In this document: positions 36,801 through 36,974 of the stretch, in pieces | How the letters are laid out: the number at the start of each line of letters is the position of its first letter | How positions within the stretch are numbered: the stretch's first letter is position 1 | NCBI RefSeq assembly: GCF_030013205.1 | Contig: NZ_CP122648.1 | DNA length: 64,000 bases | Source: Escherichia coli | GTDB taxonomy: Bacteria > Pseudomonadota > Gammaproteobacteria > Enterobacterales > Enterobacteriaceae | Direction: 5' to 3' (one strand) | Translations under genes and position numbers: made by a program | Notes under the pieces: model-generated | Database searches by the model: none | The model's input: the letters and a program-made list of their open reading frames with translations, nothing else | What the model was told of the DNA's origin: nothing

Positions 36801-36974
36801 TTAAAACAGAGAAAACAACAGCGCCACCGGGAAACTCATCGGCCATGTTGCCCCCACCAGAAAGGCACTTAAGAAACGGATGCGTTTCTTATCGTGAGAA
36901 AGAAACCAGGTGATAAGAAATGCGATTGCTGCCATAACCGCATAAAAAACAAGCATATGTTGATAGAGAGACAT
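36801..36974 (-). CDS. ortT: Orphan membrane toxin OrtT (YdcX), 57 aa, GhoT-like
   Basis: Internal ATG 36974 gives MSLYQHMLVFYAVMAAIAFLITWFLSHDKKRIRFLSAFLVGATWPMSFPVALLFSLF; the ORF track extends it by 25 codons upstream. Confidence 0.8.
   Translation of the reverse strand: MSLYQHMLVFYAVMAAIAFLITWFLSHDKKRIRFLSAFLVGATWPMSFPVALLFSLF

Follow-up and report, generated by a model that had tools for sequence, protein, structure and literature searches.

Assignment of a short minus-strand gene of Escherichia coli to ortT, a GhoT/OrtT-family gene with no antitoxin gene detected nearby

We analysed a 64,000-nt stretch of Escherichia coli DNA (contig NZ_CP122648.1; hereafter the window) and, from comparisons of its sequence, identified a minus-strand gene as ortT, the core chromosomal E. 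coli gene for the orphan toxin that Islam, Benedik and Wood reported in 2015 (PMC4344625). Taken together, the evidence argues strongly for a 57-aa inner-membrane peptide of the GhoT/OrtT family that has no antitoxin and is probably controlled at the level of its synthesis, and we hold this explanation with high confidence. The finding is correct but already known and ordinary; ortT has been described before, and the significance beyond correct annotation is small. The use of the analysis lies in a checked 57-codon reading of the gene, according to which the open reading frame (ORF) calls of 73-97 aa that are common in public databases are over-extensions through the gene's own putative promoter. 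The wider biological question is how E. coli can keep a core gene for a lytic membrane peptide with no antitoxin against it, and whether the peptide acts as a toxin at native levels.

The frame reads on the minus strand from an ATG at 36974-36972 to a TAA at 36803-36801, and translation of its 57 codons gives MSLYQHMLVFYAVMAAIAFLITWFLSHDKKRIRFLSAFLVGATWPMSFPVALLFSLF. A mechanical ORF list carried the same frame as 36801-37049, with a GTG start and 82 aa. A 751-nt query around ortT showed 100% DNA identity to E. coli chromosomes, and the RefSeq coding sequence annotated in the identical DNA, 174 nt long, occupies exactly 36801-36974 under the name 'ortT: orphan toxin OrtT' (WP_000061178.1). Among 5426 complete E. 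coli genomes, 5405 contained a match to the 751-nt query with at least 80% coverage; with a shorter query consisting of ortT and its upstream region, the count was 5415 of 5426, nearly always once per genome. OrtT of strain K-12 (YdcX, b1445) is a 57-residue protein identical to that of the window, and the two coding sequences differ only in a few synonymous substitutions. The K-12 locus also has the same gene order (patD, yncL, ortT, ydcY, ydcZ, mnaT) and the same intergenic distances (194 nt and 85 nt). The identical protein and the syntenic patD-yncL-ortT-ydcY position place the gene in the RefSeq orthologue group. Coordinates of the gene, its neighbours and the elements upstream of it are listed in Table 1.

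Table 1. Features at and around ortT in the window
Feature	Coordinates	Strand	Evidence
ortT (ydcX; b1445 in K-12)	36801..36974	-	57 codons + TAA; RefSeq CDS in identical DNA, PF10753, gap-free alignment, dN/dS
In-frame 25-codon 'extension' of the 82-aa ORF	36975..37049	-	non-coding evolution, comparative
Shine-Dalgarno-like GGA, weak	36984..36986	-	9 nt before ATG; kept in 5/8 genera
-10-like hexamer CATATT, putative ortT promoter	37011..37016	-	GCATATT invariant in 8/8 genera
-35-like hexamer TTGATG, putative ortT promoter	37034..37039	-	CTTGAT conserved in 7/8 genera
yncL, 31-aa stress-response membrane protein	37169..37264	+	NCBIfam NF000537 equivalog, E = 2.4e-20; RefSeq
ydcY (DUF2526), downstream co-directional neighbour	36482..36715	-	PF10735, E = 1e-46

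Some matches to the ortT region departed from the usual pattern. Six of 5421 were in records typed as plasmids, a few E. coli genomes had two places matching the region, and in NZ_OZ547117.1 the match was confined to the first 100 nt of the query.

By profile, by length and two-helix architecture, and by the presence of Phe38, the product is a member of the GhoT/OrtT family. It matched Pfam PF10753 (Toxin_GhoT_OrtT) with 96.9 bits against a cut-off of 22.1 (E = 8.3e-28), residues 4-57 being aligned with profile positions 1-55 of 55. When OrtT was aligned with K-12 GhoT, whose sequence was taken from the annotated ghoS-ghoT locus, 36 of 57 residues (63%) were identical with zero gaps, in agreement with the figure given in the original paper (PMC4344625). 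A first-pass annotation, made from the DNA sequence, had described a 57-aa hydrophobic GhoT-like peptide and proposed an alignment with GhoT/OrtT as a check. That alignment, the full-length match to PF10753 and a GRAVY value of +1.11 all bear the description out.

Hydropathy of the peptide peaked at residues ~8-24 and 34-55, with the loop SHDKKRIR between the two peaks. Employing AlphaFold2 with a 22-sequence alignment, we obtained a model with helices at residues 3-27 and 31-56, predicted with moderate confidence (mean pLDDT 71); among solved structures, no PDB relative of OrtT was found at E <= 1. All 22 aligned family members fill the same 57 columns, and M1 is invariant. Phe38 is present in both the window OrtT and GhoT and gives way to A, V, L or I in some of the orthologues, namely P0041, P0044, P0073, P0085 and P0111. 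Phe38 is therefore not a strict signature of the GhoT/OrtT family; what column 38 appears to conserve is hydrophobicity of the residue, not Phe as such. In a search of 5.8 billion clustered proteins, we found 313 relatives of OrtT. Those with an organism name were from enterobacteria, and those with a family name were GhoT/OrtT. Two homologues of 57-71 aa, P0107 and P0111, carry the name '4-hydroxybenzoate polyprenyltransferase' in their JGI source, which is almost certainly an annotation error.

GhoT (K-12 b4559), the toxin of the type V system GhoT/GhoS, shares with OrtT the length of 57 aa, PF10753, the hydrophobic two-helix architecture and Phe38, and each of the two proteins lyses cells and lowers ATP on overproduction (PMC4344625). 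In K-12, ghoS-ghoT is a different locus from ortT. There ghoT sits 27 nt 3' of ghoS in one operon, whereas the window contains no ghoS-like gene to accompany ortT. GhoS does not neutralise OrtT, and the deletion phenotypes also differ, being seen with trimethoprim and sulfamethoxazole for ortT but with carbenicillin for ghoT (PMC4344625). In one Kosakonia genome (L005:3010-3183 and 3270-3443) and on a metagenome contig (L008:2097-2270 and 3043-3216), two GhoT/OrtT-family genes lie within ~1 kb of each other. These paired copies are 54-63% identical to GhoT, and a GhoS homologue was not found near them.

For a comparative test of the start codon, we aligned the gene together with 260 nt of upstream DNA from eight genera. 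The 171 coding bases of ortT showed no gaps and no in-frame stops, the amino-acid identity to E. coli was 81-91%, and the variable columns were distributed as 23/13/49 over the three codon positions (of 57 each). Pairwise dN/dS of these bases was 0.05-0.08 where synonymous sites were unsaturated, which shows that the frame of 57 codons is under strong purifying selection. The 75-base extension that separates the 82-aa ORF from the annotated gene evolved otherwise. Its variable columns were distributed as 19/22/20 (of 25 each), and its length ranged from 72 to 78 nt in the eight genera, leaving remainders of 0, 0, 2, 2, 1, 0, 0 and 0 on division by 3. Five of the eight carried in-frame stops, namely Salmonella, Citrobacter, Kosakonia, Buttiauxella and contig L008, and outside Escherichia the in-frame amino-acid identity to E. 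coli fell to 0-32%, as against the values given above for the core. Conservation within the extension falls on a DNA block, TTGAT-N17/18-CATATT, and not on a peptide.

These patterns bear directly on the alternative that translation begins at GTG 37049 and yields 82 aa, or at ATG 37022 and yields 73 aa, the annotated 57-aa protein being a truncated version. In the window and in K-12 no stop interrupts the frame as far back as 37049, but the GTG is GTT in O157:H7, and the A-run following it (37041-37049, minus strand), which is A6 in the window, is A7 in an ST131 strain, where the extra A shifts the frame and makes an in-frame TGA. Similarly, all six E. coli strains that we compared have ATG 37022, but another Escherichia species reads ATA at this place, and beyond these the codon is missing. 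Many automatic public calls for the family have 73-97 aa, but the calls as a whole vary in length between 57 and 97 aa and their N-terminal extensions are unrelated, a sign of how often automatic callers over-extend the gene. The annotated Met of ortT is also where the Pfam model and GhoT start. The annotated ATG has only a weak Shine-Dalgarno sequence, but neither upstream codon has one at all, and both fall inside the conserved promoter-like block or upstream of it. N-terminally tagged OrtT remains toxic, which means that OrtT with a longer N-terminus need not be inactive. Weighing these points, we consider translation of a longer form extremely improbable. The first-pass annotation had called the 82-aa ORF over-extended, and the lack of codon periodicity in the extension, the stops in five of eight genera and the loss of the GTG within E. 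coli agree with that call. The region 36975-37049 is best read, on this comparative basis, as a non-coding 5' UTR plus core promoter, outside the protein. Variation in the length of the A-run is probably behind the many differing N-terminal extensions in public gene calls.

The duplex energy with the anti-Shine-Dalgarno sequence was -3.3 kcal/mol at ATG 36974 and +0.6 kcal/mol at both GTG 37049 and ATG 37022; as background, the ATGs of the whole window had a median of -2.5 kcal/mol. A check of the ribosome-binding site, also proposed in the first-pass annotation, thus succeeded only in part: the annotated ATG stood above both upstream candidates but was no better than the ATG background, and we rejected the Shine-Dalgarno signal as an arbiter of the start. 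No ortT entries were found in the published ribosome-profiling and N-terminomics texts and supplements that we searched. We call the 57-codon start because comparative genomics, rather than a Shine-Dalgarno signal or profiling, decides it.

The conserved DNA block in the extension has the layout of a promoter, with the -35-like and -10-like hexamers separated by 17 nt in the window and by 17-18 nt across the alignment. It agrees with the sigma-70 consensus at 8 of 12 positions, which is under the threshold of our consensus scan, and was unreported by that scan. We infer from its conservation that this block is the ortT core promoter, with a predicted transcription start near 37003-37005 and a leader of ~30 nt. 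If transcription starts near 37004, both GTG 37049 and ATG 37022 are located upstream of the transcript. No mapped ortT transcription start was found in Cappable-seq or ROSE supplementary data (searched by coordinate and, in ROSE, also by gene name). The upstream block also contains AACTT...TCAAA, reminiscent of a sigma-E promoter. Sigma-E elements are expected at a spacing of ~16 nt; judged by eye, those in the block are only 8 nt apart, and we rejected this reading.

The leader RNA (37005-36900) was predicted to fold no more stably than shuffled sequences (z = +1.24), which speaks against a leader structure hiding the ortT start codon. Control of ortT at the level of translation is putative and unproven, and the leader is without unusual structure. 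On the opposite strand, facing the ortT leader, there is a terminator-like hairpin (ACGCGCGCAAATATGCGT) followed by a T-run (37002-37029, plus strand), which overlaps the -10 element and discriminator of the putative ortT promoter. As the end of an antisense RNA this hairpin is unsupported: the consensus scan revealed no plus-strand promoter-like site in or below ortT, and, as we read the alignment, the hairpin is not conserved in Salmonella.

ortT is flanked by ydcY, ydcZ and mnaT on one side and by yncL and patD on the other. The divergent neighbour yncL lies 194 nt upstream (intervening sequence 36975-37168) and is the only neighbour kept across genera, and only in the closest ones. It adjoins ortT in divergent orientation in Escherichia, Salmonella, Citrobacter and Intestinirhabdus but is absent beside the orthologues in Kosakonia, Buttiauxella and contig L008. 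ydcY adjoins ortT only in Escherichia; its place downstream is taken by a convergent srfC-like gene in Salmonella, Citrobacter and Intestinirhabdus. Between the ortT stop codon and ydcY there is a sigma-70-like site, TTGACG N16 TATCAT (36758-36785, minus strand; 10/12). Such a promoter-like site for ydcY is in line with published work, according to which ortT and ydcY do not form one operon.

A tblastn search with K-12 GhoS brought up no homologue anywhere in the 64 kb of the window (best E = 1.1, noise) and none within 3 kb of the orthologues at seven loci, those of Salmonella, Citrobacter, Kosakonia, Buttiauxella, Intestinirhabdus, another Escherichia species and a metagenome contig. No Rfam family matched the region 34000-40000 at E <= 1. 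The published search for an antitoxin, which covered YdcY, GhoS, flanking intergenic RNA and a 2.9x genomic library, was also negative (PMC4344625). YdcY is rejected as an antitoxin on three grounds: it adjoins ortT only in Escherichia, it has a promoter-like site of its own, and its co-expression brought no relief (PMC4344625). The absence of a cognate antitoxin nearby, asserted in the first-pass annotation, is thus what the GhoS and Rfam searches and the published screens all returned.

Because the defining adjacent ghoS-type gene, for which we searched, is absent, ortT is not, on its gene content, a type V system. In such a system the antitoxin protein cleaves the mRNA of the toxin; co-expressed GhoS brought no relief from OrtT toxicity (PMC4344625). 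Hok, TisB, Ldr, Ibs and others are membrane peptides of type I toxin-antitoxin systems. Like OrtT, they are small hydrophobic inner-membrane peptides that are harmful on overproduction, with depolarisation and more persistence. They differ from OrtT in that no antisense or overlapping small-RNA gene is detectable at ortT, where the intergenic distances are short, and in that there is no sequence relationship. We found no evidence in the sequence that ortT belongs to a type I system, which strictly leaves room for a novel small RNA.

The toxicity of OrtT is known from the original study. Upon induced production of OrtT, growth stopped and 99.99% of cells were lysed within two hours; the membrane was visibly damaged and ATP decreased 27-fold (PMC4344625). 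Removal of the ortT start codon abolished the effect, and the substitution F38R lowered toxicity in OrtT and in GhoT as well (PMC4344625). The toxic construct was an ASKA clone with an N-terminal 6xHis-linker and a strong T5-lac plasmid promoter (PMC4344625). Experiments with this construct therefore show an effect of overproduction, neither toxicity at native level nor the native N-terminus. The mRNA level of ortT was increased with serine hydroxamate, mupirocin, trimethoprim, RelA production and heat shock, and the ortT deletion mutant showed more growth and metabolism than the wild type in trimethoprim and in sulfamethoxazole (PMC4344625). In another study, the deletion mutant was more sensitive to blue light, and ortT was called aBL-protective (PMC10782963).

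We propose that the two-helix peptide with its short basic loop may insert into the inner membrane and, once inserted, would dissipate the proton-motive force. Because there is no antitoxin, control would have to lie in synthesis. OrtT would then be held in check by a stress-responsive promoter at ~37039-37011, the predicted leader of ~30 nt and a weak ribosome-binding site at ATG 36974.

A different explanation takes OrtT as a benign conserved small inner-membrane protein, for example a modulator of membrane proteins or of envelope stress, whose lethality is an artefact of overproduction. This would fit a core gene under strong purifying selection that is found in 5415 of 5426 genomes, occupies a syntenic chromosomal position near patD and yncL rather than a mobile element, and has no antitoxin. 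Toxicity has been seen only with His-tagged protein produced from a T5-lac plasmid, but its reduction by the single substitution F38R argues that the effect is sequence-specific (PMC4344625). The closest paralogue, GhoT, has a genuine antitoxin, and we argue from this that the fold may be intrinsically harmful. Phenotypes of the deletion mutant bear on both sides: the blue-light sensitivity and the protective role ascribed to ortT (PMC10782963) favour a benign function, whereas the increased growth and metabolism in trimethoprim and sulfamethoxazole when the native copy is deleted point to a growth-reducing activity, and transcription is induced by inducers of the stringent response (PMC4344625). 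On balance, we regard a purely benign role as unlikely.

The absence of an antitoxin would itself be only apparent if OrtT had a partner that was missed, either the divergent YncL or an unannotated antisense or trans RNA. This is very unlikely. In the published work, the UTR construct was limited to the 217 bp separating yncL from ortT and did not include yncL in full, and the library covered the genome only 2.9x, but the flanking RNA gave no relief of toxicity and the library yielded no antitoxin (PMC4344625). An antisense RNA might end at the terminator-like hairpin and T-run opposite the ortT leader; against it stand the lack of a plus-strand promoter-like site and of any Rfam match, and the failure of the hairpin to be conserved as such in Salmonella. 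As for YncL, its gene is divergent from ortT at 194 nt and adjacent to it in four genera, and the protein could counteract or tune OrtT within the bilayer, the two being expressed from the shared 194-nt control region. If true, ortT-yncL would be an unrecognised kind of peptide-peptide toxin-modulator pair. We find this very doubtful indeed, because yncL is absent beside the orthologues in the three more distant genera. Our preferred reading remains that of an OrtT without antitoxin, controlled at synthesis.

Two minor observations concern the neighbouring genes. In E. coli ATCC 25922 (L013), patD is frameshifted and carries a pseudogene flag. Upstream of yncL, the alignment contains a second strongly conserved block, CCCCTATGKGTATAGTACGGG (minus strand, ~37117-37137), which is probably the yncL promoter.
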